Assembly: GCA_050084985.1 (NCBI GenBank)
Contig: JBITNC010000001.1
Span: 2,232,001-2,296,000, forward strand
DNA: 64,000 nt
Source: Nageia nagi
Taxonomy: Eukaryota > Plantae > Pinophyta
Direction: 5' to 3'
Both the position numbers and the translations under genes were made by a program. Under the pieces are notes generated by a model. That model saw nothing but the letters and a program-made list of their open reading frames with translations. It had not been told where the DNA came from and searched no databases. Below are positions 8,071 to 55,422 of this stretch, one piece after another. How positions within the stretch are numbered: position 1 is the stretch's first letter; each line of letters starts with the position of its first letter.

Positions 8071-8074
8071 TGTA

Positions 8075-14663: not shown

Positions 14664-14777
14664 TTTTTTGTGCCTTTTGCATGCTCCTTAGTGGGCTTTT
14701 GACCTAAAAAGTACTCTAGGGGTGCATTTTGCATAGTTTTTAAGTTTTTGGAGTCTTTAAACACTCCATAGGCTTGC

Positions 14778-25430: not shown

Positions 25431-25499
25431 ACAAAATATAGGATTTCTAGGTTTTGAGAAGGCCTATGGAAATGGTGTTATTTTTGAAGTTTTCTAGAA

Positions 25500-28400
25500 T
25501 ATAAAATTGAAGATGCCAAGCTGCGAAGGACGAAAAACCATGCATAATTAAACTTGGAACTTCTTGAAAACAGTCAAAATTGCAAAATCTACGAGGAGGC
25601 ATTTTTCAAGTTTTGATGATATCAAAGCTTGGAAACATGCACCTGGAGGAGATTTCAACAAGTTTGAATTTCGCTAGAGTAGAATTTGGAGGATATGAGC
25701 CAATGAAAGACACCGTTGCAGACCTGGTTCGAAAATCCGTGATTAATCGGCGAGTACTCGCGAGTAACCGCGATTCGAAGGCAAAACGAGTAATCGAGGG
25801 TCATTACTCGGCCTTGACGGTTTTTGTAGGTTACTCGATGATCACTCAGTGGTTACTCGACAATTACTTGGTGATCACTCAATGGTTACTTGACAGTTAC
25901 TTGGTGATTACTTGTCTACCATCAAAATAGAGTTAAAAAACATGAAAAAGACGGTAAACAGCAAGATATGCCTTTTAACTATCTAATTGTGTCTCATTCT
26001 TCTCATTCCATTGTGTTAGCTCAATTTTTTGCTCTGTAGATCAATTTGTGAAAGATTTGAAGTTTGAGTATCAATTTGAAGAGCTTCAATGTTGATTTGT
26101 AAGTTTTTTCATATTTTGTAATTTTTCATATTTTGAAATGTTCAAGGTTTTTTTGTCGACTTGCGGTGCCGACTTTTTTCTGAGTACTCTCCGAGTTGTC
26201 GAGTACTCTCTAAATTTTTCCTGGCCGAGTAGTTCCCAAGTCCGAGTTTTCCAACCTTGGTTTCAGACACCTTTAGGCTTGGAGATCTCAAAGTTCGACC
26301 AAAGTTGCTCTTTCCAAAGTCTAGACACAGGTTTTCTGGTTGTGATGATGTCAAAGATGGAAAAATGGCACCTAGTGTCAAGATGCCTCATTTTGATCTT
26401 CATCAAATTTGAAATTTGAAGATACAAGCATGAGAAGGGTACCAAAACAAACAAGTTTAAGCTTGAGAGTTTTCAAATTTGATCAAGTTTACTCCGTCTC
26501 ACCTCTAGGCGCAGATTTTGGGGGTTTGATGGTGCCAAACATGGAAAACATGTGCCTAGCATGAAGATGAACATTTTTAACCAAATTTTGAATGCATTTT
26601 TGAAGACATGGAATGATGGAGAAAGGAAAAGCAAGTGCTTTTGCTCTTGGAAATTTGAAAAAAGACCAAAAAATATGTCCAAGAGATGTAGGCATCATTT
26701 TGGGAGCTTTGATGGCATTAAAGCTAGAAAACATGCGCCTAGGTCATGAAACACTCAAATTTGACATTTTGGAATAGGATTTTGAAGACACCATGATGTG
26801 TAGGATGAAAAATCAAAGGGATTTGGCTTTGAAACTTCTTCAAAAGGATCAAAATTGCTCACTCAAGAGGTAGGCGTGTTTTTTGAGTGTTTGATGTCAA
26901 CAAAGAGAAAAAAACATGCTTCTAGACCAAATGGGCTCTATTTTTTACATTTGAACATTTCAAATTTGAGCACCTAGAGGCATGAAGGATTGAATTTCAA
27001 GTCAAATTACCTTTGGAGGTGCTCAAAATACTCAAAAACTCCCCTTCCACACCTAGGTGCAGATTTTGGGGATTTGATGGTGTCAAAAATGGAAAACATG
27101 TGTATACCTCAAGATGACACAAGTTTCGATTTTCATGGAAGTGAAAAGTGAGCATACAAACTTGTGGAGGACCTAAATCTAAGTATCTTTAGGCTTGGAA
27201 GTTTGTAAATTGATCAATTTTACCTCCTCCTACAGCTAGGTGCAAGTTTTGAGAGTTTGTGAGGTCCAAATATGGAAAAATGACGTCTAAGCCCAAACTA
27301 CTCAAAATTTACCATTTGTCAAAATCAAAATTTGAAGGTATGAGGTGGTGCACAATGCAAATCCAAGCATGTTTGCACTTGGAAGTACTCAAAAATGACA
27401 AAAAATGCACATTCTATACCTAGGTGCAATTTTTAGGTGTTTTATGAGACCAAAGAAGGAAAACATGCGCTTGGGTGAGGAAGACCTATTTGGCATGGAA
27501 AACACACCTTAGAAAGTGATCTTATTTGTCAAAATGAGGCTAACAAGCATGTGAAAAGCACCAAAACCAAATTTGAGCACCAAAAGCAAATTTGCGTACC
27601 AAATCCAAATTTGAGCACCAAAAGTGCACCCACTCCCAAAATTGAATTCTAGATCCAAAATTCTCAAAATTAATGCAAAATACCTTGGAGTTTTGTTGCC
27701 TATCCATCCATGGCCTTGTTGGATCAATCTGATAACTTTTTGAAAATTTTCCAAAATCACTGCCCACGCCCCCACCCCATAGAGCATTTCCGAAAATTTA
27801 GATGAAAATCCACTTTTTTGAAAATCCTCACCAAATTGCTTGAAAGTTCGCCAAGAACACTCAAATGTAGATTGAATCCATATTTGACAAGAAAATGTAC
27901 TTAAAGATGGTGGAGGAGATTCATAATGGCTTCAAGATCCGTTGAAGAAGGCTCAAATTTCTATCTATTTAGCTTATATTGCTTATGGGATGAGTTTTTA
28001 CTCCCACAACTTGAAATCTAATTTCAATTTCAGTTTGCATTTCAATTTGATTTAGAGCAACACTAGGTTGCTCTCAAAAGTCTGTAAATTGACCCTAATG
28101 GGTCTCGTTTGTTCTAGAGTGAAATTTGTGAATAAAAAGAGTAAATTGATGTATTCTTGTATGCTTTTAAGCAAATTTATACAAAGTGGTGAATTTTTAA
28201 AAACAAAGTGAATTGTCATTTGTGGGATTGCGGATTCGATCTTTTGGAGCTTTTTTTGAGTGACTTGGATTCTTTCGTGCCATTTCTTTAAAAAATTTCA
28301 AATTTTAGGAATTTTTTTTGAAAATTTTAATCATTCTTAGATTGGTGCCAATCTACAATTTGCATGTTAAGTGAACGTAATCTGAAATTTCTTTCATTCT

Positions 28401-28669
28401 ATGCCATCCAATTAGACCTTTCATTCGAAACGAAGTTTGTGGGTGCACTTGATCTACGCTAAGTTCATTTGATTGTTTATTGGTACCACTTAGGAGTATC
28501 GACAATCAGCGTTGCTCTTTGCTCCTCTTGAAAATAACTTGTATATAGGTCATTTATTTTCAAGTTGGAAGACTTTAAATAAAACTTCTTAACTAATTCG
28601 AAAAGTAAAAAATCTCATACAATGCTTCATTGTGATGTTTCCTTTGTAATCTAACAAAGTATTGCATCA
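25500..28669 (+). mobile_element. LTR-like sequence with an E-type ~183-bp array but no large ORF; boundaries approximate
   Basis: TAGG(C/T)GC anchors at ~26322, 26506, 26689, 26871, 27054, 27237 and 27421 resemble the reverse complement of the E array. Possible ...GCATCA end at 28669; no TSD found. Confidence 0.55.
25723..26259. mobile_element. hAT-type MITE (537 bp)
   Basis: Imperfect TIRs CCTGGTTCGAAAATCCG / CCGAGTTTTCCAACCTTG, 8-bp TSD GTTGCAGA/GTTTCAGA, and subterminal CGAGT/TACTCG repeats. Confidence 0.8.
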
Positions 28670-29145
28670 TTCTCAACTTTTATTTTCTTTATTTTTCTCT
28701 TTCTTTAAAATTTAAAACAACATTCAAACTTCACATATAAACACCCTAAGTTTCCTAAAAAAACACGTGAGTTAACAACTATTACCTCTATTACACCACT
28801 GATTTGATTCTTGAACAAGAGTTACTACAAATCAAGCGATTTTCTTTTTACGAATCTGAAACCTTGGGGTCTCAATCCTTACAAGTCAGGATAGGTAATG
28901 CTATCTCACCTAAATGCTGGGTTGTGTTTCCATTCGATCACCTCCGGTGATGCCTTGTATAAGAGGAATGAATTCCTTCCCAACACCACCACCTCCCCTA
29001 GTCATCCCCACCATCCTCAACCCTCCCCACACTCCCATTCTATTGGATCCAGTGCATGCCCACCTTTACAATAGTATCCTAAAACAGAAGTTACTTGGCT
29101 TACACTCTCTTTCTTCTATGGATGATCAGGCACTCTTTTTAGCGG

Positions 29146-29344
29146 TGTTGGTATGTTTTTCTTTCCTCACCCAAAACATGCACAAGACTTGGAGGAAACA
29201 ACGTTACTTGTTTCAACTTGAAAGGATTGGTTACCCCAAGTGCTCACATGGAATATGGACTAGGGAACAGTGGATAGAGATGCATGTTGTTAACTGTATA
29301 CAAGGGAAATATACGGCCGGAATTCATTTCCACAAAGAGGAAAG
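29146..29344 (-). mobile_element. Terminal ~200 bp of an inverted A/C-type unit, cut by unit B
   Basis: Reverse complement of ~44755-44947 (TGTTGGTATGTTTTTCTTTCCTC...). Confidence 0.88.
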
Positions 29345-31580
29345 TGTTGTGCTTGCACAACACCCTCCAAAAATTTGCATTTTTGAGGACCCTCATTGTA
29401 CTAAAACGTAAAGACATGAAAGATTCTTTTGAGGAAATGCATGCATTATAGGTGTAGCAAGGGTACACGTGGTAAATTTGAACCTTCATGTTCAAACGAG
29501 TCAGAATTTTGCCATTTTATCCATGGCACACGTTTTAGGGGACATGCTTTTGCATGTACATTGAAACTTGCACCCTCCTTCATACTTCATAGTTTTGGGT
29601 TAAGTCTTGCATTTTTAGATTCAAACTGCATTATTCATGCCCATTTTTACTTAATCATTTTGTGAAAATTGCATCCCCTCCATCACATCTCATTCTTGAG
29701 GATCATTTTGGTCATTTTGAGGAGAATTAACATGTTTTGTGCCTGAGCGCATGTTTTGAGGGACATGCTTTTGCATTTACCCAGATCGGTGCACCTAGGT
29801 GGATGAGGTAGTTTGACACTCAGCAGATTTCAGAGGAAAATTGTCAAAACAGCTTGAGCGCATTTTTGAGGGACATGGTTTTGCATGTACCCAAAATAGT
29901 GCGCCCTTGGCAAAAAGAGCATTCTCAAGCACTTAGTCATTTTTAGAGAAATTGGTGAGTTGGCTGAGCGCATGGTTTTGGGGACATGCTTTTGCATATA
30001 CTCAAATCAGTGCGCCCTCCTTCAGATGCAAAATTTTGGCTAAAGTGTGGGATTATGGACATTCACTATGGAAAAGAGAGGTGTGCTCACATGCATCGGA
30101 CCTTCACTCACACTAAAAGTTGCATGACACCTGTCCACTTGAGCAAGTCTATAAAAGGAAGGTCAGCTTCAACATTTAGTTTGTTTGGTTGAATTCAGAG
30201 CCTTGTGCAGTGCTATGTCCATAAAGCATGTCCCTCAAATTTTGTGCCCTATTTTGGATGGTGATTTTCAAGGTCATTTTCATTAAATATTAATTTGTTG
30301 CATTGGAGAGTGTGTCACGGGATTGTGCACATGGTTTCTGGAGCATGCTTAGGCACTCATTCAAATTGGTGCACCAACTTCCAGATGTCCTGGCCCAGGG
30401 GTATTTTTTTGACTAAGTATACAATCTTGTAAAGGGGCCTAGGCGCATGTTTTCTGGTACATGCTTTTCCACTCTTCCAAAAGGGTGCACCCAAAATCCA
30501 GGAGCATTTTCAAGTCAAGTATTTTGAGGTGCCTGTTTTGGTACCCACAAGGATTTTGGGACATGCTTTTGCACCCCTTCAGAAGGTTGCAACCAAGTTG
30601 CAAAGGTTTTCAAGTATAATAAAATTAATTACTAAGTCCTTTTTATGCATTAAAGTTAGTAGGCGCATGCATTTCTAGAACATGCTTTTGCACGTACTCT
30701 AAAACGTATGCCCACCATCTTGGCTTTGTCATTTGACCTCATTTTGAACCAACCTAGAGGTGATATTGGGCATGTTCGAAGGTTATTTATATGAAGCAAC
30801 CCCTTGTATCATTTAATGCTTCATTTCATTTTGGGTTGAGATTCTTCGTCGCATCATTTTTGAGAAGGTGTCTGTGCTGCCAAAAGCCATTTTTAAGAGG
30901 GTGAGCTATATCCCAGGGTCCATTTTTTGTAATTCACTTTGCATTTTTCTGTCAAGGCTTGCCCTAAATTGACCTATGCTCATGTTTTCTCACTAGTGCT
31001 TCAAGGACTCATCCAAGACGGTGCGCCCAGGTCCATATTTAGGAATTTGGCGAAGTATACCTGATTATTAGATGCATTCTGTTCTTTCATTCATGCATTA
31101 GAATTTAAGGCGCATGCTTTGTGGAACATGAAAAAACACATGCCCAAATCCATGCGCTCTAGCATGAAGTGGTGATCTGGCCTCTCAAGTAGAAAATTGT
31201 TGCCCAAAAATTGACAAAAGTGATGTGTATGCCCATCAGGAGACCAGTCGCCTATTTTTTAGGTAGTGAAAAAGCACGTACCCAAATCCGTGTGACCTGG
31301 GGACAATGAGCCAAAATTGTCTAAGTATTGGAGAAGCCAAGAGTTGGAAGACTAAGAAGACAGGTGGCACACCCACTGTGTGCCATGCATAAACCCTACA
31401 TGCAGCTTCTATAAGAAGGCAATTCGAGTTCATTTCTGCAGGACATTTTACAGCTTAGACCTGCATGTCTGGCCAAGTTTTTCTATGCACATCTAATTCG
31501 GTGTTTGACCGTTTTTGGGGCATTCCCAACCAGAATTCCAGCTTTTTATGTAGTTTTCTGCACATTTTTCAGATTTTAAG

Positions 31581-34500
31581 ATGACTTCTAAGGTGAGGTC
31601 TCCCCCATCCAAGGCTAGGAAGATTCAGGGTTGTTGGAATGTATAATGCATAATTGTAAAGGTTATGTAATAATCTTCTATGTAAGTTCACTAATACTTA
31701 AGGGTATCATTTGATACCTTAAGTATTTAAGTGAATATGATAATGTTACTTGTCCTACACTCCATGTCATGAGCATGCCCCTTGGGTAAAAGGATGTGCA
31801 TGTCATGCTTTTGTACATTGGATAAAAGGGTGATCCAAAGAGAGATTTTGGCCTATAAATAGAAGGCTCTCCTATTTGTGATTACACACCCAATTGTGGA
31901 GTAAAGTTATGCTATAGGATAGTGTTTAGGAGTTGAGATTAGGAGGATTGTAAGAGAGTTGTATTTGTGATTGAAGTAAAGATCTAGTTAGTGGATGTGC
32001 TTCTAGTTGGAGGAACCACTTACATCTTGTGTTGTGTTGTGAGATTGCTTTGTGAGTTTCTTAGATGTGTATTGTGAGCTTTCATGTGATCTTGGGAGTT
32101 TAGAGTTGTTCATGTTATAGTTCAACTCTCTCAAGGGGTAGCTTTTTGAAAGACATGTCACAGATGACCAGATGGAGAGGATTTTGAGGGAAAGTCAGAT
32201 AGAATTGCAAGAAAGAGAAAAACCAGAGCTCTCTAAAGCCAAATTTAAAAGGGAGATTCGCCTTTGTTGGTGATACAAATTGGGGAAGTGTTAACCCCAT
32301 TTAGACCATAGCCTCCACTGCCTCCATTAGTAAGGAGGGCTCGTTGGATGAAATCATCCATTCTTGTGGGTTGTTTAATGCCATTATGATGCCTTTTGTT
32401 GTTTCATTTCCTTAATTGTTTTATGAAATTCTCTAAATGCTGCAAGTATGACAAAAGAGTTCTCTTGGACACCGAAGGGAATGTGATCATGGGCTTCTCT
32501 CCAGAAGGAATCAAAGCCGCCTTTGGTTGGAGAAGATACGAGGATGATTATACATTGGCCACTTCAGAAGAATTCCATGACTCCACTTCTTGGCCTGGGG
32601 ATTATATCAGAAGATGGTTGTATGAAGACTACCAGGGCATCCAGGGCCAGAGATTGATTCGTTCTTGTAGGGATGAGTTCCTCCCCACGATTGCTAATTT
32701 GATCACTTTGTTGTACAGAGTCACAGGTCAAGAAAATGACTCCAGTACATGAAGGAGTTCATTGGATTTATTGCCGTGATCAGCTCAAGGAGAGCTATTC
32801 GGTGGAACAGGGTAATTAGTGATGCCTTGCACCACCAGCTAGCCTACTTTGGCTTTTCTAGGAGGTTCTATATGAGCTCTTATCTTGTGTACCTATTGTT
32901 GCATGACAAGCTCATATCAAGGGAGCTTGCGGATGAAAGATATTTGGGCCAAAAAGGCATCCCGGTGTGGCAAATCTATTAAAAGTGGTGGTATCATAAT
33001 AAATTCAAACATTTCTATGAGAGAAACGACAGATGGGAGTACGCCATTTACAAGGAAATCAAGGAGAATCAGTAATCAAAAGAATCTCTGATGCTACTGT
33101 TCAAGCCATCAATGTGCATGCAGACTTCTATCTGCAATATACTGATCATACTTACATCAGGATCTACGGCTCTAAAGAACAACCCTTGCTCTTGTCCAGA
33201 TATGTTAGTGACAAAATGATTCTCATGGAATTTGCCAGACAATTACTGTTTTTGAAGGAACAAGTGTGGAGAAAGGATGCAACCATCAACTTACCCATTT
33301 CCATCGCAAGTTATGTTTGGTAAACATGGGTTGAGGGTAATAATATGAAGAAAGAGTTGCAGTAGTATGTCTTCTTCAAGGAGATGGCAGCCAGAAACTA
33401 CAATCCTAGGGGTGTTATCGCCCGTTTCTACAATACCGCATTCTAGAAACTTGTTGTTTACAAGCATAAGTCTTTGGGGAATGTGAGAAAGTACATAAAT
33501 GTACGAGATGAGGAGGAGATAACAAGAATAGATGCTCTTTTGAGCAGGAATAAGGCTCCCCTTCAGGTAGAAAAGGCACCTCAGAGACCTAGATTTGTGA
33601 AAGCAAGACCTAAAGAGGTCCCATTGAGGATCAAAACTTCCCATCCTTCTTCAAGCGTTGCACCTTCTCAAGTCAAGACATCCTTGCTTCCCAGGGGAAA
33701 AAGACAAGGAGTGTCAAGAGAACATGCCTCAGCAGGACCTAGTAAACGCAGTGTGGTGACTGACGTAGTGAAGAAAAGCCAACAGGGTGTCTGATTTTAG
33801 AGACGCTGGTTATCGTGATATCGCTTTGAGCATGCTGGAGGAAGCCCATGCTAATGATTCCCTTGTTGAAGAAACTCCATCGAGACCACTCGTCCTCCTG
33901 AATATGTAGAGAAAGTTCTCCCACCACAACCAAGTTGTAGTTCTTTCAACACTCCACTTCTTATGAAGAACCCGACCGTACTGAAGAAGGCTCAGAAGAA
34001 GAGACAGAGAGCCAAGAGAATGATGTAGAAAGTTGTGGTGAAGAAGGAGAAGAAGAAGATGATGATGCAGATGATGCTGTTGATGAAGAGTGCCTCGGTC
34101 AAGAGAATGTAGCTATAGGTGCTTCTGTACCTAATGATACAGAGATTGAAACTCTCTCGAACAACAATGATGACTTGTACGTAGACGTTGGGACCTATGA
34201 TGAAGAAGTCCATATTGTTGGAGTGAAGTATGCCAAAGATGTGGGTTCTTCCAAACCCTCTCCTATTGAACATAGAAAGAGGTCACCCTCATCTTCTCAT
34301 AAGCCCTTTGTGAAGAGGACCAACCATTAGAGATCCCTTTAGCCACGAAAGAAAGGTCTATCAATAGGTGGTGATGGGGGAGACGAAAAAGATGGAGAGA
34401 CCGAAGAACAAAAAAAGAAGAGGAAGTAGGACGAGCATCAGGGTAAGGAGGTTGCCCTTGTTTAAACCACTCCAACCAAAGAAGTTAAGAAGATTAGTTA

Positions 34501-34647
34501 AAGCTGAGTGCTAGTGCAGAGGTTCCCTCCCAAGCTAGCAACCGAACACCTAGATCTTGACTTAGATGCCTTCCTAAGAGACTTAAGCATGAGTACGACT
34601 CATGATGAAGAGATTGATCAGGACTTGAGGTTCGAGGATGAAGACAC
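31581..34647 (+). pseudogene. Large ORF copy B, truncated and interrupted by a solo LTR
   Basis: MTSKVRSPPSKARKIQG...GDTNWG...IRWNRVISDAL...RRFYMSSYLVYLLLHDK...YIRIYGSKEQP...DQDLRFEDE. Confidence 0.88.
31632..32133 (+). mobile_element. Solo LTR (502 bp)
   Basis: TG...CA termini, TSD AGGGT/AGGGG, CCTATAAATAG at ~31852. Removal restores ARKIQG-(Q>stop)-LFERHV. Confidence 0.85.
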
Positions 34648-36327
34648 GTAGCCAAATTTCGGAGCTTCAAGGCTTGTCACAAGGGTGGAGATGAGTCCTT
34701 TTGCACTCATCCAAAACCATGCGACTAGGGAAAATAGAAAGCAAAAAACCTAAGTGTTGGATGTTAGTGACAAGTGGAAACCCATGCATTAGACCTCACC
34801 CTATGCCTATCTCATGGTGACACGTGTCCCACCTTGAAAGCTATAAAAGGGAAGTCACCACCCCTTCATTTCTGTTTGCAAAATTGAAGGAGGGCCAGAG
34901 CGTGGGAGATAGGAGAAAAAGCACCCCTTCTTGGATGTGCGACCAAGGACAGCCTACACCTTTTTCAAGTTTTGTTCAAAGATTGACCTTGGTAAGTGTG
35001 CCAAGGGTTGGGCGTAAGGATTCAAGCTTGTGCTTTGAGCACCCATCCAAAAGGATGCGACAAGGGAGTTAAGGGCTCTAATATGTCGGAAATTGACTAA
35101 GTCCCCTTGTCCCACTTCCTAGTCGCACCATTCCTATCTGGTCCTTTTGCACCCTCCACCATCCATGCGACCTTGTTCGTAAGCTTCCTATTGGACCTTT
35201 TAGCGAGCTGGTAAGAGAGTAACACCTGGCTTAAGAGCAAACCTATAAATATCACCCCCTCCTTTGAACATTTCATCTCTCATTTTCATCCCTCTTCTTA
35301 GTCGCATCATTTTTCAAACATGCTTAAGCATCCATCCTAAAACATGCGACCAAGGAAGGGACATTAAAATACATTGCACTCATTTTAGGGCTTGGTCGCA
35401 TCATTTTTTATGCATGCTCAAGCACCCACTTCAGAGCATGCGACCAAGAATGGAGATTCAGAGACGTACATCCAGTTAGCCTCTTTTGGCTAAGGCATTT
35501 CAGATCCACCCTTGAAACCTAGTTGCATCATTTTTCATGCATGCTTGAGGCCCTCATTCAAAACCATGCGACCAACTTTGGGGTGAAGAATTTAGTTCGG
35601 GAAATTGACTAAGTGTCACCAGGCCCAATTGCACGCATTCCTGGCTGTACTTTTGCACTCATTCATACTATGTGCTTGGACTAGTCAGTCATTTGGAATT
35701 GAGGAAGGATTAGGGTAGCATCCTCCATGGCTTCAAGCACCAAAGTACCCACTTTGAAGGCCAGAAAGACCCAAAGCCAATTATTCGGGAGGCATGTGAC
35801 TAAAAGCCGGATGACTCGACTTTTGAGGGAGAGTTTGATAGAATTTCAGCTGAAAGGCAAACCAAAGCTTCCCGAGGCCAAATTCAAGGGGAAATATATC
35901 TTTCTTGGTGACACTGATTGGGGTGACTTGGACCCAATTATGGCCTTGGCCTCTACAACCTCTCTCAGCAAAGAGGACCTGTCTGCAGAACTTATCCACA
36001 CATGCTTCTTGTTCAATGCTGCCATAATACCATTTGCAGTACCTTTTCCCAACTTGTGCAGTGAAGTGGCCAAGAGGTGTGATTTCAGCAAGAGATTGCT
36101 ATGGGATATAGAAGGTAATGTAATCATGGACTTCACCCTTGTTGGCATTGAAGCAGCTTTTGGTTGGAAACGTTATGGGGATGGCTATACATTGGTGCAT
36201 TCGGAGGAGTTTCATGATTCCACTTCCTAGCCTGGGGACTATATTAGACCTTGGTTGCTTGAGGAATTTCAGAACCTTCAAGGGCAAAGGTTGATCAATG
36301 CATGAAGAGAAGAATTTCTACCAGTGG

Positions 36328-39300
36328 TGATCCGTAAACTGAAGGATTAAATAACTAATTTAACCCTACTTGGATCATTCACACTTAAAACTTATTAAGT
36401 GCTTGCAAATATGTGAGAGAGATTGAGTGTTATTAATTATTTCAAAAAAAATGCTGTGAGTAATGTAGGAATCCACAAATCACAAAATTTGCGATAATCA
36501 AAAGAATGCAAACCACAAGGAGAAGAACACCAAAAGTTACCCTGGTTCACACCAACTTGGGCTACTCCAGCATGTCTGCGCTCTCTCAATTATGGAATGG
36601 AATCAGGCATGCAATATTGCCTTTACAATATTTCCTCCTGTCTTGACACCTTTTGATCAATATCCCTTCATACCCATCAACATACTCTCCTGGAACAATT
36701 ATCAAGCATTACAATGATAAAAACACACTGTCTACTTGCACCCAATTCACAGACTTACAAAGTGTCTACTCTCAACTCTCTCCCAACATTCCCCCCACAT
36801 AGCCTCCTTTAAATAATATTTTGAAGGAGCTACGTAGCAATATTTTGGTCATAGCACACCTGTAGGAAATCTCCAAAGAAGGCAAAGATTGATTTGGCCA
36901 GAATGCAATCTCCTTTCTCCTTATCCTCTCCCCTAAAAATGCACTATACGCCATATTTTGCTCTCTGGAAAATATATGACAGTCTAAAATAACACCTACA
37001 GGATTTAAACAATAATTATAGTCTCAAAAATAACATCAAAACTCCAAATTACATTAAAATCCATGCAATAGGTTAAAATTGGGCGGATGGCACAGAATTG
37101 CGCCACTTGGCACTTGCAAAAGGCTTGGTCAACTCCCCTTTGACCGGCGGCTGGCGGTTTCCGACGACTGGCGGCTTCCGGCGGTTGGCGGCTATGTCGG
37201 CTGTCTCCACTCCACGCGGGCTCTAACACCTCACACTCGCCTCACCTTGCCACCTCACTCCAACGTGGCCTCCACATGGGCCCCCTTTCACCTCCACGCA
37301 GCCACAACAGGCGGGTCCCGCTCCTAATGGCCGCCCAACATTTAATTTAATTTTTTGAATATATTTTTTTATATATATATATTTTTTTTTTTGCCTTTTC
37401 ATATTTTCCACACAAACTGGATTTAATTGCATAACTTCCTCATACGGAGTCGGATTTACGATCCGAAAGAAGCGTCGGAAAGCTGACGATGAGACGATTC
37501 CAATGAACTCATAGAAACCTCTTGACATTGATCATTAAAGTGATCCAAATTCGGATCATTCCTCCACACTGAGAGAGTGCTTTCGTCCTCGAAAGCTCAA
37601 GGATGACAAAGATGAGGAACCCAGTTCCCCAACATAGGTCCATGCCAATAATGCCTCCATGTATTCTCAACTGCGAAAACCACTGGATATCCTGGCACAC
37701 AACTTGCAACACTGCATCCCATAGAATTTTGTGTCACCATATTGCCAATCTGTATGGCTTGCCTTTGCTCCTCCTGCGATACTGAAACCTGTGCTTCTTC
37801 TTTCACACTCAACAATGTTAAGTTTCTTGAAGCATTAAACAACTGTCTAACATGCCCAGATAGGATTTTAGGATTTTTACTTTTATGAGACTGAAGAATG
37901 TAGGTTTTACCATCCTTCCTTAGTTGATACTCATTCCGCTTGCGCATGAAAATTGCATCCCTATCATACAAATATGGGCTGCCTAATACAATGCCACAAA
38001 CATCGAGAGGTACCACATCTAATAACACTTCATCATAAAACTTTGTATTAACCCCAAACTTCAACTTACACTGTCGTGTGACTTGCAATCTAGCATTTCG
38101 ATGCATCCATCTGAGTGGATATGGGCGTGGGTGAGGTTGAGTTTGCAACTCCAAATCTTTCACCAAGTCCTCAGCAATCAGATTAACCTGTGATCCTGGG
38201 TCAAACAACACATCAATCTTGGTTCTTTTTGCTTGAACTTTAATATGGAATAATTGAAGTCTTTTATCCTCCTCACTTAATTCATATGAATTCTTAACTC
38301 CCATGCAGTTCATTTGCTCATCAATCTCAGATGTATCATCTATATCACAAATTTCTTTACCCTTAGAAGCTACAACATTTTTCTTTTCTTGATTCTTTGC
38401 AAACCATTTCGGTGCTTTATCAGGATGGAGTTTCCAACACTTAGCATCAGTATGACCATCTAAATTGCAATGTGAACAATGCCCTTTATCTTTCTTATCC
38501 TCTTTCTTATCATCTTTCTTAATTGATGCATTCGTTTGCTTTTTACCTTTAGGATCTTGATCTCTTGATTTATCACGTGCCTCAAGGTGTGTAGCTTGAA
38601 CACAAACTTTGTCTAAATCATTCACATCAAAAAGAAGAAGTGTATGCCTAAATATGAATGTAAACCACCAATATACTTGAATAATGTTTCTTCACTATTT
38701 AGTGCAATACCCAACATATTAGCCTTTTTACGAAATTCAGTAGTGTAGTCTTGTACACTTTGGCCCTTACCTTGACGTAGATTTTGCCACTCCATGATTA
38801 CCTTTGGCAAATACCCAAGTGGATAGAAATGATCTCTGATATGTTTCGTAAAGTCTCCCCATGTAGTGATCTCCACATCCAAGTTAGATCGACTTTCCCA
38901 CCATATAAGAGCTGAACCTCCCAACTTGAGAGTAGCTAATTGAATCTTGGTCCTGTCATCAATAATCTCATGCACTCTACAATAGACCTCAATTTGCTTA
39001 ATCCAAAAATCTAATTTCTCGGCATTAACCTCTCCATCATACGTAGGCAAATCAAATTTCACTTCTAATTTAAGAGGCGATTTCTTAGAATTAAAGAAAG
39101 AAATATGTTCATCATCACCTTCATGTGTGTTGTTTCTCCCTGAATTCTCTCCTAGAGATTCTTTAATCCTTGCTTCATTCCGCAATTCATCAATAGCCAT
39201 GGTCATTTTCGTTATCAGGGATTTAAGAACATCAAGCTCAACATAGACATTCCTCTCTGATTCTGTTCTCTCAGCCATTTGCCTTGTCCAAATTCTGGAA

Positions 39301-40686
39301 CCAATCTCTGGATCTTCTTCAGCAAGAACTCCTTCACCTTTTTTGCTCTTTGATCTGGTAAGCATCAAAAATACACACTATCCAATCCAACAAGACTTGC
39401 AGTAATTGGATTTAAAGAATACCCATTATTCTTATAGGTTATCCCATTATAATCATCAGCTCTGATACCAAACTTGATCCGTAAACTGAAGGATTAAATA
39501 ACTAATTTAACCCTACTTGGATCATTCACACTTAAAACTTATTAAGTGCTTGCAAATATGTGAGAGAGATTGAGTGTTATTAATTATTTCAAAAAAAATG
39601 CTGTGAGTAATGTAGGAATCCACAAATCACAAAATTTGCGATAATCAAAAGAATGCAAACCACAAGGAGAAGAACACCAAAAGTTACCCTGGTTCACCCA
39701 ACTTGGGCTACTCCAGCATGTCTGCGCTCTCTCAATTATGGAATGGAATCAGGCATGCAATATTGCCTTTACAATATTTCCTCCTGTCTTGACACCTTTT
39801 GATCAATATCCCTTCATACCCATCAACATACTCTCCTGGAACAATTATCAAGCATTACAATGATAAAACACACTGTCTACTTGCACCCAATTCACAGACT
39901 TACAAAGTGTCTACTCTCAACTCTCTCCCAACATTCCCCCCACATAGCCTCCTTTAAATAATATTTTGAAGGAGCTACGTAGCAATATTTTGGTCATAGC
40001 ACACCTGTAGGAAATCTCCAAAGAAGGCAAAGATTGATTTGGCCAGAATGCAATCTCCTTTCTCCTTATCCTCTCTCCTAAAAATGCACTATACGCCATA
40101 TTTTGCTCTCTGGAAAATATATGACAGTCTAAAATAACACCTACAGGATTTAAACAATAATTATAGTCTCAAAAATAACATCAAAACTCCAAATTACATT
40201 AAAATCCATGCAATAGGTTAAAATTGGGCGGATGGCACAGAATTGCGCCACTTGGCACTTGCAAAAGGCTTGGTCAACTCCCCTTTGACCGGCGGCTGGC
40301 GGTTTCCGACGACTGGCGGCTATGTCGGCTGTCTCCACTCCACGCGGGCTCTAACACCTCACACTCGCCTCACCTTGCCACCTCACTCCAACGTGGCCTC
40401 CACATGGGCCCCCTTTCACCTCCACGCAGCCACAATAGGCGGGTCCCGCTCCTAATGGCCGCCCAACATTTAATTTAATTTTTTGAATATATTTTTATAT
40501 ATATATATATTTTTTTTTTTGCCTTTTCATATTTTCCACACAAACTAGATTTAATTGCATAACTTCCTCATACGGAGTCGGATTTACGATCCGAAAGAAG
40601 CGTCGGAAAGCTGACGATGAGACGATTCCAATGAACTCATAGAAACCTCTTGACATTGATCATTAAAGTGATCCAAATTCGGATCA
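36328..40686 (-). mobile_element. Young non-autonomous Ty3/gypsy-type LTR retrotransposon, gag-protease only (TR-GAG-like)
   Basis: Near-identical LTRs 36328-37558 and 39475-40686 (TGATCCG...CGGATCA), TSD AGTGG, tRNA-iMet PBS TGGTATCAGAGC at 39459-39470, PPT at ~37559-37568, 1.9-kb internal region. Confidence 0.97.
37597..39368 (-). pseudogene. gag: Gag (Retrotrans_gag, CCHC knuckle) plus aspartic protease, with one frameshift at ~38650
   Basis: LRQGKGQSVQDYTTEF, CSHCNLDGHTDAKC and VLFDPGSQVNLI. Reading GLHSYL-RHTLLLFDVNDLD needs one extra base. Confidence 0.92.
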
Positions 40687-43600
40687 AGTGGTGGCAAAAT
40701 TGATCACCTTGTTATCAAAAGTAACCGATCAAGAGAACGATGCCATGTACTGAAGGGGGTTCACACGATTTATGGTTGCAATTAGTTCAGGGATGTCCAT
40801 TAGGTGGGCAGTGGTTATCAGTGATGCCCTACGCTACCAGTTGTCTTTGTTTGGGTCCTCAAAGAGATTCTACATGAACTCTTACTTGGTATACCTGTTA
40901 CTGCACGACAAGGTCATATCTAAGGAGTTGGCTGATGAGAGGTACTTGGGAGAGAAGAACACTCCCATGTAAAGCGCATACCAGAAATGGTGGTGCCAAA
41001 ATAAATTTGAGTATTTTTATGAAAAGACTGACGCCTGGGAATATGATATCTACAAGGATATCAAGGGAGAGTCCATGATGAAGAGGATCTTTGATGCTGT
41101 CATCTAGGAAATTCGCGTGCATGCAGACTTTTTTCTGCAAGACGCTAACTTCACCTACATCAGAGTTTATGGCTCCATGCTCCTGCCCAGGTATGTTAGC
41201 AATAGGTTGGTCCTCATCGAGTTTGCCAGGCAGCTTTTGTTTCTAAAAGAGAAGGTTTGGAAGAAGAAAAATGCCACCATCAACTTGCCTATTTCTATAT
41301 CTGGATATGTGTGCCAGACTTGGGTGGAGGTAAGACACATGCGGGAGGAGTTACAGTAGTATAACTTCTTCAGGGAAGCTGCTGCAAGGAACTATGATCC
41401 TAAGGGGACAATTGCCCCTTTCTATGACACTGCTTTTCATCGGCCCATAGATTTGTGAGGTGAAGAAAGGTATAGGAATGTGCAGGACGAAGGGGAAATT
41501 GCACATATCACAACTTATTTGAAAAAGAAGGTGGTTCCCCTTCGAACAGAAAAGCCCCCTCAGAAACCTCGAACTATCAAACCCCAACCTAAGGAGGCTA
41601 TTTTGAAGGTCAAATCTCCTACCCACACAACGTCCTCACCCAAGAAGGAGAAGACCTTGCTTTCTATAGGAAAAAGGCAAGAGGCCCCGAGAGAGCCTCT
41701 TCCAGGGCCCAGCAAGCGTAGTGTGTTGGAAGCTGACCTTAGAGATGTTGGCTATTGTGCTCTCCCTTCAGATGTGCTGGAGGATGTGATAAACATAGCC
41801 TATGGGAGTGACTCCCCCACGGAAGTGATTCCTTCCAGATCAACCCATTCTCTTGGGCAAAGAGGGAGAGTTCCCTCATTACAACAAAGTCCTAGCAGCT
41901 CCAAGCCCTCTTCCTCTTCTTTTGATGAAAAAACTGATGGAAACTCTGACCGTACAGTTGAAGACTCTGCAGAAGAGTTAAAGAGCCAGAGAGGAGGAAG
42001 AGGGAGGTGATGCCAACGTTGACCACTCACATCAGCCAGAAGACATAGCCAATGGTGCTTCAGCGCCTGACGAGACGGAAGTAGAAACCATTCCGGAAGA
42101 TGAAATAGTGGACGTAGGCACTTATGATGATGACATCCAGATACTTGGCCAAAAAGGCGCTAGAGAGGTGGTTGCCTGCAAATCCTCTCTTGCCGTGCTC
42201 AGGAAAAGGTCTCCTTTGCGTAAAACCTCTACTAAGAGGAGTCATGATAAATCTCCCTAGCTCCGAAATATAGGCATATCTCTAGGCGGTAGTGGAGGAG
42301 ATGAAGAGGATGAGGGAGAGAGAGAAGAATAGAAGAAGAAGAGAACGTAGGAAGAGCATGAGGGCAAGGAGATAGCGGTAGTTCCAACTACTCTAGTAAA
42401 GGTGGCCAAGAAAGTTGATAAAGGAAGGTTGTTGGTTCAGAGATTTCCCCCTCAACTAGTGATCGAACATCCAGACCTTGATCTAGATGCATGCCTTAGA
42501 GCCCTCAACATGAGTGCAGCTCGTGATGAAGATATAGACCAGGACTTGCGGTCTTGAGGATGAGGAAGAACTGTCGGATGTGGAGAAAATTCGAAGGGTG
42601 GACACCTTTGTCTCCACCTCTCAAAAGGAGATCTCTATTCATCATTGCTACTCCAAGGAGAAGCATCCTTAGAGGGCCAAGGATTGTCTTATCGAAACAT
42701 TTAAGATGCCAATCAAATTGGGGTTAACCGCCAGGAAACGCATTGTTACCCAAAATGCTGCAATCATGGAACAAGAAGGCTATGAAGCCAAAAGGGAAGT
42801 AAAGAGATTAAAGAAGGAGCTCACAGCCAGTAGAAAAATTATAAAGGAGTTCCAGAAAATCAACACAACTCCCTTACATTTGCAAAAACAAACTTCCTTC
42901 CATGAGGGGTGGGAACTCATGAAGGACCAACTCAAGAATGAGATGGTAGAGATTGTCGAGAGATTGTCTTCACGCATTTACAAGCTCCTAGCCGAGGGCG
43001 TTGAGATCAGGGATCTCAAAGCTCAGATTACTACTCGCCTCGGCCAGTTGGACAATTACCTACCCAATGTTTCCCACCTGCAGCATACTTTTGCCGATAA
43101 CCCCGAAAAATTGATCTACTGCCATGAGTTAACCTATCACCACGATTGGTTGAACCACGCACTCGAGAAGTGCAATGCTGTCCTCAAAGTAAGGATCCCC
43201 TTGCGAAAGGAGGTAGATGAGCAAATGAGCGAATATCTTTATCATCTCAAATTCTAAGTGGAGGATAATAATTTTCGAAAGAAGGAAGTAGTGTTGGCAG
43301 AGGCCTAGAATCTAATCGAGGAACATCTTGAGATCGAGAATCTAAACTTGTTGAAGGCAGGGCTTCCTATTGAGCACGAGAGGCGGATGGTCGTCTGGAG
43401 GTACCAGATGTAGGCCACTATCAAAAAGATTGAGGATTACTTCCGGTAGAATGGTAGTACCATTGGTATGATCTCTAAGGGCATGCAGAAGACTGTGGCA
43501 TTCTTGGAGGAGACAATTGAGTCCTATGGTCTCACCAGCGAGGAGTGGAACTTCGCCCGTACCAAATCAGATCTGGACTAGATTTGATTCACCGCAGGCT

Positions 43601-44947
43601 TCCCCTGCGGTACTTTTTTATGTTAATGCATACAGGTGCTTGTCAGACTTTACCTTGATTTGATTGGCGTAGGGATGAGGTTTTGGTCTTGCTAATCAGA
43701 TTTGTCAGATTCATTCATGACTCGGATCAGTGTAGGGATGAGGTTTTGCTCCTGCCGGTTTTGATGTCAGACCTTTTCACTCTATTTATTGCATATCTGA
43801 TTTTTTGTTGGATAGAATAGAGGTAGAGTAGATGCATTGCGGCTATGGCATCTATATTTGTCAGCTGTAGATGCCACTTACATAGTTTTGCATGATGATA
43901 TATGATTTTCTATCGGTATGCGTGTTGCGTGTGTGCACGCCGTATCATATTTGATGTCTTTAGGGCATCACTTCTAATGGCCTATTTATACCCCACTTAG
44001 ACCATTTAGAAGAGGATTTTTACATATGGGATTTTGCATGAGGAATTTTTTGATATGATCTTGTACTATTTCTGCATGGGACTTTGCACATAATGAAAGC
44101 ATCATATACTGGAGTTCTTGCATCTTGAGATTGTGGCTATTGAGTTCATTCTTATAATAATTTTGAGCTTTTGCATATCATAAGATTCACATTCCATTGC
44201 ATAGAAGATTGCTGCATAAGGGGTTCTATGCATGTTCTGTTATTGGAAATCAATATGAATGTGTTTTGTTTAGAGGAATAAAATCATAAACTCATACTAT
44301 GAGGAACATCATTTGTGGGATTATGCATATCTGAATGGGTCTCTCTATGAACTGCATATTGTTTATTTTGTGAAAGTCTTATCCTTTTTTTTGCATAGTT
44401 TGCATGCAAGTGGATATATTCTGAGGCTTACAGCTTGTCTTTATATCATTCGGTTAGGTTACTGCACTTATGCCCTCATTCCATCTTTACCCTTTCCATT
44501 GAGTCTTCCATAAAGACCCTACAACTTCCTGCTCTTGTCTGGTAGTGATTTGAGCATATTTGCTATTTGCTCCCCGGCTTGATAGTTAGTGTATCGACTT
44601 TAATGAATTTGAAGACGGCCTATCGAGACACTGTATTCCTGGTGACGCCCTCATAGATCCTTTCCTTCCCTTGCATTCGCTTGCATTTATCCCCATGTTC
44701 TTTCCCTGCAATTGTGATCATTCTTCGCTTTCGTTCACATTTGTAGTCTTTCCTCATTAAGGAAAGGAATCCTGATGCGAGTTTCCCTTGTATACGGTTA
44801 ACAACATGCATCTCTGACTTCTGAGCCATCAAAACCATATTCCATGTGAGTGCTTGGGGTAACCAGTCCTTTCAGGCGGGAACAAGTAACGCCATTTCCT
44901 CCAAGTCTTGTGCATGTTTTGAGCGAGGAAAGAAAAACATACCAACA

Positions 44948-46909: not shown

Positions 46910-49900
46910 TGTAGAATCCCATATAATTTTGCATGCAATTAAGCAAATTCACTAAACAAGCACCCACGTCTGGCCTAGAAGGGCAGTAACAAGCATTCAA
47001 CACCTCAATATGCCAACATTAGGGTTAGGGCATCAAATACAAGTCTACACAAATCAATAATGCCAACATCTCGCTACAACATGCATGAATGATCAAACAC
47101 ACCACAACGTTGCAAATATAGATAAATGAATAATTGAATATGAGATCCAAAAGCCCACGACTTGTATTAAAGTGTATGATGAACAAAGATACAATATTAG
47201 GCCCATAGGGCTCAATGTTGGCCTCCAAGGAGCCAACTAGGGCACAATGAATATGATCAATGCTGGCTGGACAGAACACTGGATGGGATAGCCTCAGTCC
47301 CTCAAAATTTGAATCCTCTCCACCGAAGAATCTCTCTCCAAACCTTGGTGACCAATTGAATGGTAAAAGAATGACCTCGGAATGCGACCAGATGGACTAA
47401 GGTGCTACACCAAAGTCGTAGATCAACAGATCCCTTAGCCTGTTTACCCTCCTAGATGTTGCACCTAGGGATGTAATGCACCTACCCCTTGCCTTGGAAA
47501 CAATGTCGTGGCTCCCACATCTTCTTGCAATAGAAGCACTTGCCCTCTTCTCTCAACTTCCTTCGGATGGCTACGCCCAACTGGCTTGTTCAAGGCAAGG
47601 GAAAGGGTTTGGACTTGGTAGGCCCTTCTTTCTCTTCAAATGTATTCCAAGTGGCTTATCCCTTGTACATCTTCCCTCCTGAGCAATTTCATGGTAGGCT
47701 CCAAATCGTATGCATCCCTAATAGCGTCATCAAGGTTTCTTGGTGTAGATACCTTTACCATCCTTTGTAATGGCTCCATCAATCCTTCTATGAAAAGGAA
47801 TGTCAACTGCTCCTCAGAGATGTTGTGGATCATAACTGCAACCTTCTAAAATTCAGACACATACTCATCTATTGCACCTTGTTGTTTTAGAGATGTCAAT
47901 TCTCTGAAGTAGTCGTTCTCCCATTTCCGATAAAATCTCTTCACCAATCTCCTTTCAAACTCATTGAAAGAGGTGATGTGTGAGTAATCCTGGCTGATTA
48001 CTCCATGTTGCCACCATTCGAGGGCATCACCCTCAAATTGTAGTGATGCAAAATGAATTGCATCCTTTTCTACCATATTTGGACTCAAGGTGAAGTAGGT
48101 CTGTAGTTGATGTAGCTAGGCCCTAGCTGTCATCCATAGCGGCACTTGCATCTTGTTGATTTCTTTTTGTAGATCCCTCTTATCTCCCCATGAGTTGCTT
48201 TGAGAATGTGTGACGTGTGAGGTGCCTCCTTTCAGCCCCAAGATCTCTAGGTAGTCATTGAAGTTCATGTCTGTTCTCAACCCTGGATCCAACATGGAAT
48301 ACTCTTTGAAATTCTGGTTCAGCTCCAGAAAGTCGGGGATTCGATTCTTTGCTTCATTTGTGGACTTCTTGGCAAACATGGGCTTGGACGGTTTGGGGAT
48401 AATGGGTTGCTCCCCTATCTTACCAACTTCCTCATTTAGGAACCTCCTTAGGAGAGGGTTAGTTCCTTGTGGAGTTCTATGAGAATGAGATCTCAAAAAT
48501 GTGGGTTTTGGATGACCCATGGATCCGTGGTGAGTGAATCCTCTATCTCTCAAATTGCAAGATCTCCTTAGGCTCGGCTCTCTCTCTGCCCTATCCTCCT
48601 CCCATGGCTCTTCTTCTTCATTAGGGATAGGACATGGGGGCTCACATGTCTTTCTGGCATCTCTTGCCCTCCAATGTATTTGTTGACGACAGTCATTTAC
48701 TTTTGCATGGTAGCAATGGCACTCGTCATGTTGTGGATGGCTGAGATGAGCCCATTAAACCTCCTCTCAGGCATGGACTCTCTAGCCTGAGTAGGGTTCA
48801 TCCTCCTAGCCGATGTGGTTTTTCCTCTTGTTGCCTCATTCTCCTCTTCGAAATTGTCCTCATCAGGGACTTCTTTCATCCATGGTCGGCGATCCTCCTC
48901 TTTGGCAGCTCTAGAAGGGGTCTCTTTCATATTGTGTCTTTCCTCTCTTCTTTGCGAGGCCATCTCTGTTCTGCTGCTAGATCTGGTGTAGTAGTTGTGA
49001 ATGGCAAGTTTCATTCATAGGTTGGCCAAATCTAAGCTTTGATACCACTATAGAATCCCAAATATAATTTCACATGCAATTAAGCAAATTCACTTAAACA
49101 AGCACCCATGTTTGGCGTAGAAGGGCAATAACAAGCCTTCACCTCAATATGCAAACGTTAGGGTTAAGGCATCAAATACAAGTCTACACAACTCAATAAT
49201 GCCAACGTCTGGCTACAACATGCATGAATGATCAAACACACCACAACATTGCAAATATAGACAAATGAACAACAAAATATGACATCTAATAGCCCAAGAC
49301 TTGTATTAAAGATGTATGATGAACAAAGATACAATATCAGGCCCATAGGGCTCAATGTTGGCCTCCAAGGAGCCAACTAGGGCACAAAGAATATGATCAA
49401 TGCTGGCTGGACAGAACACTGGATGGGACAGCCTCAGTCCCTCAAAATTTGAATCCTCTCCACCGAAGGATCTCTCTCCAAACCTTGGCGACCAACTGAA
49501 TGGTATAAGTATGACCTCGGAATGCCACCAGATAGACTAAGGTGCTACACCAAAGTCGTAGATCAACAAGATCCCTCAGCCTGTTAACCCTCCTAGATGC
49601 TACACCTAGGGATGTTGCTTGACGTTGCACCAAGACTTACGTCCCCATGATGGTATGAGTAATATTAACAAATTTGTATATCTAGCAATGATGCTTCAAG
49701 GTCTCATATAGTAGACATTGGATCCGAATCTCACCTTAAAGTCATCACCCAACCCCTCAAACCCCAACAATGGCACCTAGGAGTCATTCTAGGCCCAAAA
49801 TGGGTATCTGGACCTGCCCTATGCTCCACGTGGGTCCTCAAGCTCAACGTGGGCCTAAGGATGCATGCGTGGGTCAAGGAGGCATGTGTGGGTGTCATTG

Positions 49901-49972: not shown

Positions 49973-52900
49973 ATGAGTTCCAGGGCAAAATTCGTTACAT
50001 CAAAGATCAAGAAACCCCAAAAGCAATTGTTTGAGAGGCATGTCATTGAAGATCAAATAGGGAGACTCTTAATGGACAGCCAGCTGGAATTTCTAGAAAG
50101 AGAGAAACTAGAGTTTCATGAGGCTAAAGGTAGATTCACATTCATTGGAGACACAAATTGGGGTAATATCCATCATGTTCAAACCATCATTTCATCATCA
50201 AAGATTTTCCAGGAGGATTTACAAGATGAAGTCATCCATTCCTATGGTTTATTCAATGTTGTTATGATGCCATTTGTTGTTCCTTTTCCTTATTTATGTT
50301 ATGAAGTGGCCAAATACTGCAAATTGGATAAGAGATATCTCTTAGACACGTAAGGAAATGTGATTATGGACTTCAATCCATAAGAGATTGAAGATTCTTT
50401 TGGATGGAAAAATGAAGGAAATGAATATATTAGAAGCGAATTTTGTGGAGTTCCATGATAGCACTACCAAGCCTGGAGACTACATCAAAAATTGGTTGTA
50501 CACTGATTTCCAGGGAATCCATGGCTAGAGGCTCATTATTGCCAGGAGGGAAGAGTTCATTCCCACAATGTCCTAATTGATTACCTTGTTGTCTAGAGTC
50601 ACTGGACAAGAAAATGATGTCAAGTACAGGAAGGAATTCACTGGCTTCATAGCCATGATCAGTCAAGGGAGAACCATAAGATGGAATCGGGTGATCAATG
50701 ATGCCTTGCGCTCACAATTGACCTATTTAGGCTCTTCCAAGAGGTATGTTTGTTGTTACTTGCATGTTGCCATTTTTGGGTATGTTTGTCAAACTTGGGT
50801 GTAGGCAAAGAGTATGAGAAAAGAGTTGCTACAACATACTTTCTATAGCATTGCCTTCGCCAACCCTATGACTTACAAACGTAGATCTCTAGAAAATGTA
50901 GAAAGATATATGAATATAAGGGATAAGAAGAAGATTGATTATATTTATGCAGCCTTAAACAAAAACAAGACTCCTCCCAAATCTTGCAAGAAGAATGCAT
51001 ATCAGCCCACTACTCGAGGAGCATTAGTAGAAAAGAGGGTTAAAGATGCCACGAAAAGGGTTAAAAGGCCTAAGGAGGTCCCACTCAAGATCAGAAAATC
51101 TCAACCTAATGATAGTACCACTCCTTTGGTTGAAAAGCATTCCTTGCTTTCTCTTGAGAAAAGGCAAGGTACTATTGGGCAACATGCTACTATGGGCAGC
51201 TCTAAACTAAAGGTAAAGGCCAATGTGGTGAGAATTAGCAAAGAAGTTGTTGATCTTAAAGAAGCAGGCTATGATAATGTTCCCTTGTGCATTTTGGAAC
51301 AAGCTATGATACACCCCAAAGGAAGTTGTGTTGGGGACTCCTATAAAAGAACCAAGTGGCACTCCATATAAGCCCCTAAGCCTCAAGATTTGTAGAGAGA
51401 ATGTTCCTCCTTTGTAACCTGGCTCCAACTCTTCTAGTTCTTCCTCTTCCTCCTTCTCTAAAGAGGATTATGAAGAATCAAACTTGCATGGAAGAGAAGG
51501 AGGTGATGATGAATCAAATGCACAAAGTAGTGAGAAGGATGATGAAGGCTACCCCTCATAGGAAGAGAATGTAGAGATGGAAGATACATAAGCCTCTTTA
51601 CTAGATGACACGGAGAATGAATCTCCCACTAGATGACAATGAGATTATAGATGTAGACCAAATGGATGAACCCTGGTGATGTCCAAATCATTGGAGTAAG
51701 TTGTGCCAAGGATGTAGGTACGTCTAGAACTCCTCCTAACAATAGGATAAAATCACATCCATATTCACAAAAGGCACCAACTAAGAGGACCTGCAATGAA
51801 AGATCACCCTAGCCTCATAGGAAGGTTCCTTCATTAGGAGGGAATGGTGGAGATGAAGAGTACGAAGGAGAAACTGAGGAGCAAAAGAAGAAAAGGAAAC
51901 ATGACAAGCATCAAGGTAAGGAAGTAGTTGTTATTCAGAGTACTCCAACAAAGAGGGTGAGCAAGAGCAGGATGTTGGTGCAAAGGTTTCCTTATAAACC
52001 TACCAATGAAGACCTAGAAGTTGACCTGGATTCCTAACTTAGAGCTTTGAATATGAGCACAACTCATGATGATGATATTGACGCAGACCTGAGATTTGAG
52101 GATGAAGAAGAGGAACTCTTTGATGGTGAGAAAGTTTGTAAAATTGACACTTATATCTCTACCAACAGAATGGAGATCATTGTGAGCCGTTGTTATACAA
52201 AGGAAAAACATCCCAAAGGCCTTGAAGATTGCTTGATTGAGACTTTCAAGGTACCAATCAAGATGGGATTGTCAGCAAGGAAGCACATTATCGCCCAATA
52301 CGCAGCAGTAATGGAGCAAGAGGGCTATGAGGCCAAGCAGGAGGTCAGACGACTAAAAAAGGAGCTTATTGCAAGTAGGAGAATGCTCAAGGAATTTGAG
52401 GCAGTAAATATGACTCTTGGAGAACTTAAAAGACAAGCTTCATTTAATGTTGGGTGGTTAGTGATGAGAGATGTGTTGTATAAGGAGATGATGGAAGGCT
52501 GTTGAGAAGTTAACTTCTCAAATATTCAATCTCATTGAGGAAGGAGTTGAGATGAGAGAGATGAAGAAGCAGATATCTGAGCTACTAGAGAGATTGGACT
52601 CGCATCTTCCTACTATCACAAATCTCCAAAACCTCTTTGCTTGCATTCCTGAGAAGTTGGGCTACTATCACGAGTTCATGTATCATTATGACTGGCTGAA
52701 GCATGCTTCTGATGAATGCCAAGTTGTGCTTAAGGCAAGAGTACCCCTGAAGAAGGATGTGGAGGAGCAAATGATGAAATACACTTATCAGCTTCAGTTC
52801 CAAGGAGAAGATGGCAATGTACGGAAAAAGGAATCTATTTTGGTGGAAGCACATAATCTTATTAAGGAGCATCTAGAGGTTGAGCATCTAGAGGTTGAGG

Positions 52901-53145
52901 ATCTCAATCTTCTTAAAGCAGGGAAACCCATTCACCATGAGAGACAGATGGTCATTTGGAAGTTTCAGATGCAAACTACTTCCCAACAAATTGAAGAATT
53001 TTACAGAGAAAATGGTAGCATTGTTGGCCTGCTTTCGAGGGGAGTTAGGAAAGCATTGGCTTTCATGGACGAGACCATAGTGTCATACGGCATCACCAAG
53101 GAATGGAGTTCTGTGGAGCCTGAGAAAAATCAAGAGCAGATTTGA
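49973..53145 (+). pseudogene. Large ORF copy D, with an internal deletion near 50745
   Basis: MSSRAKF...GDTNWG...MMPFVVPFP...IRWNRVINDAL...EQEGYEAKQEVRRLKKEL...YYHEFMYHYDWL...NQEQI*. Confidence 0.9.
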
Positions 53146-55339: not shown

Positions 55340-55422
55340 GTGCTTACAGTTGTTTTTTTGTGTCTTTTAAAACAATTATCTTAATGCTAGTAACATGATA
55401 AAGTTGTTTTCCTGGTTCACAG

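Follow-up and report, generated by a model that had tools for sequence, protein, structure and literature searches.

A selected accessory gene with a probable PMD/VANC-type fold in a likely giant long terminal repeat from the conifer Nageia nagi

Gene copies at the locus

This work concerns a gene carried by a repeated element in the conifer Nageia nagi (Pinophyta). The window, i.e., the whole stretch of DNA analyzed, comprises 64,000 nt of assembly GCA_050084985.1 (contig JBITNC010000001.1, positions 2,232,001-2,296,000, forward strand). Translation together with tblastn maps one long open reading frame (ORF) in it in five copies, A, B, C, D, and F. A first-pass annotation had proposed five diverged copies of one protein, and this is borne out: a profile of the N-terminal domain (N-domain), built from 133 relatives, matches copies A (35790-36329 and 40682-41548), B (13906-12524, reverse strand), C (50054-51011), D (32173-33581), and F (2051-2233 and ~8066-8545), and it finds no sixth place in the 64-kb window. 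The ORF is almost certainly a selected gene of a mobile element.

Only copies A and B span the whole ORF, and all five are broken by stops and frameshifts. Copy A runs on the forward strand from an ATG at 35727 to a stop at 43579-43581, ~1,160 codons once a nested element at 36328-40686 is set aside. Its 5' part (35727-36327) holds the first 200 codons of the N-domain with two premature stops; the remainder (40692-43581) holds the rest of the N-domain (to ~41550), a linker, and a C-terminal domain (C-domain) with heptads at 42556-43581, and it is interrupted by several stops and two frameshifts (~42010 and ~42550). The interval 35727-43587, given in the first-pass annotation, does contain copy A, but 4.36 kb of it belongs to the unrelated nested element.

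Copy B (10678-13921, reverse strand) has stops and one frameshift or deletion near 12540, and a relative of it in another locus, L001, retains 758 open codons. Copy C (49973-53145, forward) has an internal deletion at ~50745, stops, and frameshifts, while copy D is cut at ~34645. Copy F (8066-21119, forward) is split by insertions: its ORF occupies 8066-9431 and 17367-~18500, its tail reaches a 3' terminus at 21119, and it is interrupted by unit B, described below, and by a solo long terminal repeat (LTR) at 19616-20805. An N-domain fragment at 2051-2231 (forward), found by both profile and tblastn, probably also belongs to copy F. The motifs reported as conserved are shared by the copies although they are not invariant (copy B has RDTNWA for GDTxWG), and the EQEGYEAK codon strings given for 42769 and 52314 are both exact.

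How did the copies decay? A glutamine codon stands opposite the premature stops of copy A in 8 of 16 comparisons, and CpG is depleted (observed/expected 0.18-0.53). Together these features are consistent with a decay driven by methylation after insertion.

Selection on the protein

Protein-guided pairwise ratios of nonsynonymous to synonymous substitution rates (dN/dS) lie at 0.17-0.33 when A, C, D, and F are compared with one another (six pairs), and copy B compared with its L001 relative gives 0.40; of 15 pairs, two were left out because of saturation. Because protein-guided alignments bias toward low dN/dS, the test was redone on frame-blind DNA alignments. Here, third positions mismatch at 46-58%, against 12-31% at positions 1 and 2, in all seven coding segments (chi2 p 9e-8 to 4e-31), and codon periodicity is absent in the three non-coding controls (p 0.18-0.95). 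Maximum-likelihood dN/dS on the same kind of alignment is 0.06-0.16 for the N-domain, 0.06-0.09 for the C-domain, and 0.16-0.48 for the linker (likelihood-ratio test against 1: 6.8-194), whereas wrong frames give 1.2-2.8 and non-coding DNA 1.17.

Values this far below 1 exclude a neutral origin, and the earlier suggestion of purifying selection holds. The substitution pattern indicates that the subfamilies diverged at a time when the protein still functioned; the present copies are proposed to have decayed neutrally later.

A separate observation concerns the non-coding tail, in which A (43600-44634) and F (18520-19615) differ by ~22%, against 49% at third codon positions. Since the tail is the less diverged of the two, it may itself be constrained, or it may have been exchanged between A and F.

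Protein layout and predicted fold

The proposed layout is likewise recovered: a folded N-domain, a low-complexity linker with a basic cluster in all five copies (~42330-42350 in copy A), and a heptad-rich, coiled-coil-like C-domain. A distant relative with 23% identity (P0078) is an open protein of 1,010 aa with the same N-domain, an acidic linker, and a long heptad stretch, so that the layout appears common to distant family members. We infer a nuclear protein that would be imported via the basic cluster.

To which family does the protein belong? The PMD family (PF10536) gives no hidden Markov model (HMM) match in five readings from the window, in 44 relatives, or among the matches listed (25 of 34 families) for the 133 relatives, and the same holds for PF09331 (VANC/DUF1985). 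PF20167 (Transposase_32), PF03078 (ATHILA ORF-1), and PF04195 (Transposase_28) are also without an HMM match in the window readings and, among the matches listed, in the relatives. As a positive control, a decayed true PMD fragment in the window (63198-63920, forward), which has no sequence relation to the ORF of copies A-F, scores 2e-31. An hhalign comparison with PMD reaches E 0.082 and a probability of 0.7% over a 48-column block around a shared Trp, with a PMD profile made from two sequences only. With the PMD, DUF1985, and PF20167 tests all failing, the ORF is filed under none of these families.

Structure prediction covers the N-domain. The best structural match of the N-domain model is VANC21 (PDB 9LNK; 235 residues, 7% identity), so that the predicted fold weakly resembles VANC, a DNA-binding anti-silencing protein. 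VANC and PMD domains are described as sharing a fold, and VANC21 is predicted to oligomerize via a coiled coil (bioRxiv 10.1101/2024.09.27.615353, 10.1101/2024.04.02.587720, PMC13547354). A sequence search of the PDB found no PMD structure. On this model, a PMD/VANC-type fold is probable; the initial impression that the N-domain recalls PMD is thus supported indirectly, and its likeness to PF20167 is not.

A match of the ORF product to gag, env, or transposase, which would speak for an ordinary element protein, was looked for and none was found. No Gag HMM matches the ORF, whereas the Gag of the nested element matches PF03732 at 2.7e-13. There is no clear transmembrane segment in eight proteins (highest 19-residue Kyte-Doolittle mean 0.48-1.78, part of the copy A linker lying outside the scan), and the most hydropathic stretch falls in the folded N-domain.

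The carrier unit

Beyond what the first-pass annotation described, the gene is carried by a TG...CA unit that lacks gag-pol and is bordered by a 5-bp target duplication. The complete example is unit B (9432-17366, reverse strand), 7,935 bp long, whose ends form a 5-bp perfect inverted repeat (TGTTG/CAACA). It is cleanly inserted in the ORF of copy F, which is continuous around the target duplication AGAGG; this duplication is perfect, with a chance expectation of ~1 in 1,000. In ORF orientation, unit B opens at its 5' end with a hairpin, continues with degenerate repeats over ~2.7 kb, a TATA box (14662), the ORF, and a second TATA box (10514), and closes with a tail of ~1 kb. A six-frame motif scan for gag-pol gave a single GPF tripeptide, neither end has a second copy or a long self-match, and no transposase family appears among 24 ORFs scanned in the window.

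Within the window, the family 3' end is found at six places and the family start at three, and there is one occurrence of each in both L002 and L003, two further loci. The starts at 17366 (reverse), 29345 (forward), and 5347 (reverse) form a ~18-nt hairpin, TGTTGTG-N4-CACAACA. Both ends together with a duplication are found in unit B only; unit X has both ends with mismatched flanks. Beside the six ends and three starts, no second unit around a gag-pol, no primer-binding site, and no polypurine tract was seen. In four sequencing runs, read depth at the family 3' end drops to nearly zero from thousands or hundreds; the contigs that continue past it have unlike flanks in the 37 listed, and contigs break at repeats. 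All of the ends seen, including those in L002 and L003, border unrelated DNA.

The simplest reading of this sequence, and a likely one, is that unit B is a giant solo LTR; that the carrier is an LTR at all is rather probable. LTR elements are described as making 4-5-bp target duplications (PMC6317226), and solo LTRs are reported to be common in Cupressus (bioRxiv 10.64898/2026.07.23.736688). Within such an LTR the ORF would lie in U3, given that a ~1-kb R-U5 would be easier to reverse-transcribe than a ~7-kb one, although the orientation is unproven.

Related units and motif arrays

Ahead of the ORF, the A, B, and D subfamilies each carry a motif of their own. Since the motifs were picked after inspection, their copy counts are descriptive only. 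The array of copy A (34718-35573, forward) contains six CATGCGACC-like copies against 0.1 expected, with a TATA box at 35243. Unit A has lost its own 5' end, and its conserved non-coding tail (43582-44947, forward) has a TATA-like box at 43982 and ends in the family terminus ...CCAACA at 44947. In unit B, degenerate tandem repeats with ~185-bp and 128-bp periods (14654-16718, reverse) precede the ORF, and a GCGCCTAG-like motif occurs 12 times against 0.6 expected in 14700-17366. Unit D (29345-34645, forward) begins with TGTTGTG at 29345 and has an array with seven CATGCTTTTGC-like copies (0.3 expected) and an ORF (32142-34645) truncated at both ends; it is inserted into a further member, G, whose 3' terminus lies at 29146-29344 (reverse). 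Subfamily motifs are absent or single in the tails and at most double in the ORFs, and the B motif is also found in D (five copies) and in unit Y (eight copies).

Other relatives are without this ORF. Unit X (2232-5347, reverse) has the same terminal sequences, flanks that form no duplication, its own repeat motif (10 copies, 0.4 expected), and a different short ORF of ~175 aa that has no convincing Pfam match. It and a unit at ~289-2040 are related sequence with another repeat motif. Beside unit X lies a decayed acidic ORF (5349-8065, reverse) that could be an internal region, with no recognizable primer site or purine tract. At ~25440-28900 (forward), a B-like unit has a repeat array and tail with no ORF between them, i.e., an ORF-less derivative.

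Proposed role and alternatives

VANC proteins are described as binding short motifs in family-specific tandem repeats and stripping silencing from their own elements (PMC5735166). This literature and the subfamily arrays upstream of the ORF make the following model the one deemed most likely. Transcription of the gene would start at a TATA promoter of its own within the LTR; the protein would enter the nucleus by means of its basic cluster, oligomerize through the coiled coil, and bind with its N-domain the repeat array of its own subfamily. From there it would act in trans and keep the element family transcribed against host silencing, and LTR-LTR recombination would leave solo LTRs in which gene, promoter, and binding sites stay together.

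Taken as a whole, i.e., as a selected accessory gene in a 7.9-kb, likely Ty3/gypsy, giant LTR of a likely conifer element, encoding a PMD/VANC-type DNA-binding fold with a coiled coil that binds its own subfamily motifs and counters silencing, this account has about an even chance of being right. The anti-silencing action, considered alone, falls slightly short of even. A bolder version, in which each solo LTR of a ~8-kb conifer LTR is a self-contained trans-acting anti-silencing cassette with VANC-like gene, promoter, and cognate array, and in which each subfamily's protein and motif evolve together, as they do in VANDAL elements, is doubtful. Two points weigh against anti-silencing: the host PMD proteins MAIL1 and MAIN are reported to promote silencing of transposable elements (PMC5418596), and unit X carries arrays without the family ORF.

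With the element and fold unchanged, the protein could have a role other than anti-silencing: it might tether the integration complex to chromatin, package RNA or serve as its scaffold, or work in particles. This is unlikely, even if the extra ORFs that Tat elements carry, of PMD or PMD-coiled-coil type, have no known function (PMC4408406) and the C-domain is constrained as strongly as the N-domain. The best match of the predicted fold is a DNA-bound anti-silencing factor, the motif arrays adjoin the gene, and the lack of a clear transmembrane segment argues against an env-like role.

Less probable again is that the unit is a non-autonomous DNA transposon, or another integrase-mobilized unit, comparable to VANDAL in its very short inverted ends, subterminal repeats, and VANC-like helper gene. 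VANC itself is a DNA-transposon protein, and the ends bordering unrelated DNA, the hairpin starts, and the lack of an internal retro domain would fit. However, TG...CA ends with a 5-bp duplication are the signature of an LTR integrase, and the duplications of Mutator-type elements measure ~9 bp. The repeats are confined to one end of the unit, the ORF, unlike VANC genes, has no introns, and no transposase is seen.

It is improbable that the ORF is simply the internal extra ORF usual in Tat/Athila elements, with unit B a rearranged remnant mimicking one LTR. Gymnosperm TatIII does have an antisense PMD ORF, lineages IV-V combine PMD with a coiled coil, TATA-like boxes occur here in both orientations, and the locus is heavily rearranged. 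Against this, unit B shows its perfect duplication and the two termini of the family, each end being present only once, and a two-LTR deletion remnant that kept its duplication would retain a direct repeat. Finally, a host gene family or neutrally copied junk is very improbable. One relative does carry the annotation of a hypothetical protein in Taxus, but the five copies here are all broken, mutually nested, intronless, and high-copy, and the target duplication together with the termini effectively refutes this reading.

Relation to known systems

The proposed giant LTR with its VANC-like gene has several partial counterparts. The PMD extra ORFs of Tat/Ogre Ty3/gypsy elements are likewise accessory ORFs of retroelements in which a coiled coil comes after a folded N-domain, also in gymnosperm hosts, including TatIII (PMC4408406, PMC6317226, PMC9289625), and their fold is probably related through VANC. 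Those ORFs are described as internal to the LTR pair, either preceding gag or following pol in antisense; the present ORF lies inside a single TG...CA unit without gag-pol and has no PF10536 match.

VANC of the Mutator-like VANDAL elements (DUF1985) is the best structural match, over 235 residues. It too has a coiled coil, and the non-coding DNA of its elements holds short tandemly repeated motifs specific to each family, as is seen here upstream of A, B, and D (PMC5735166, PMC13547354). It differs in sequence (7% identity, no Pfam match), in its described restriction to dicots, and in its carrier, which here has TG...CA ends, a 5-bp duplication, and no transposase.

Very long LTRs and extra ORFs are described for Ogre (LTRs of 1.9-6.5 kb; PMC6431247) and rice Retrosat2 (LTR > 3.2 kb, ORF0, frequent solo LTRs; PMC3485330), where the extra ORFs are internal; the present unit measures 7.9 kb including its ORF.

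Retroviral genes inside an LTR exist, e.g., MMTV sag in U3. Like sag, the present gene would lie within a terminal repeat, but protein and host are unrelated and the ORF is far larger.

Neither an ORF of this kind inside a plant LTR nor a VANC-like protein of a retrotransposon was found in the accessible literature, which included Cupressaceae genome papers as well as bioRxiv 10.64898/2026.08.24.746577; coverage of subscription journals was thin, and the family could already be among the extra ORFs tabulated in PMC6317226 or shown in Fig. S4 of PMC4408406. What appears new is the unusual place in which a retroelement accessory protein, probably of PMD/VANC fold, is encoded.

Other features of the window

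The element nested in copy A (36328-40686, reverse strand) is an unrelated young LTR element with LTRs at 36328-37558 and 39475-40686 and the duplication AGTGG. The LTRs are 98% identical, with four mismatches in 1,212 aligned LTR bases, and the 1.9-kb interior gives gag and protease matches only. Its primer site is TGGTATCAGAGC, which we take to be of tRNA-Met type. Relatives from related runs show the insertion-free form of copy A, in which ~36322 joins 40687.

Another LTR family is present at 46912-49615, where a 92% identical repeat pair flanks a gag-like region; the solo LTR at 19616-20805 is related to it and has a 4-of-5 duplication. A reverse transcriptase fragment (57800-58219, forward; PF00078, E 1e-12) is presumably LINE-like. 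Exon-like pieces of a host gene lie at ~23420-24116, 55150-55340, and 55424-55530 (forward); the two pieces scanned have no Pfam match, and their C-terminal peptide is presumably NEDD1-like. If these pieces form one gene, copies A, C, and D sit in its intron.

Outlook

Sequence-specific anti-silencing has been demonstrated, in the sources available, for DNA transposons (VANC, TnpA), while PMD-type extra ORFs of Ty3/gypsy elements are described there without a known function. The family presented here joins a VANC-like predicted fold and VANC-like motif arrays in a likely LTR, and the function of an extra ORF becomes testable with a natural domain and its neighboring array. Gag-pol-less units this large would be missed or misfiled by standard LTR pipelines. 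If the proposed role is true, the protein would give VANC a counterpart among retrotransposons and bring this fold into gymnosperm elements, and it could bear on how retroelements persist in the heavily methylated giga-genomes of conifers.
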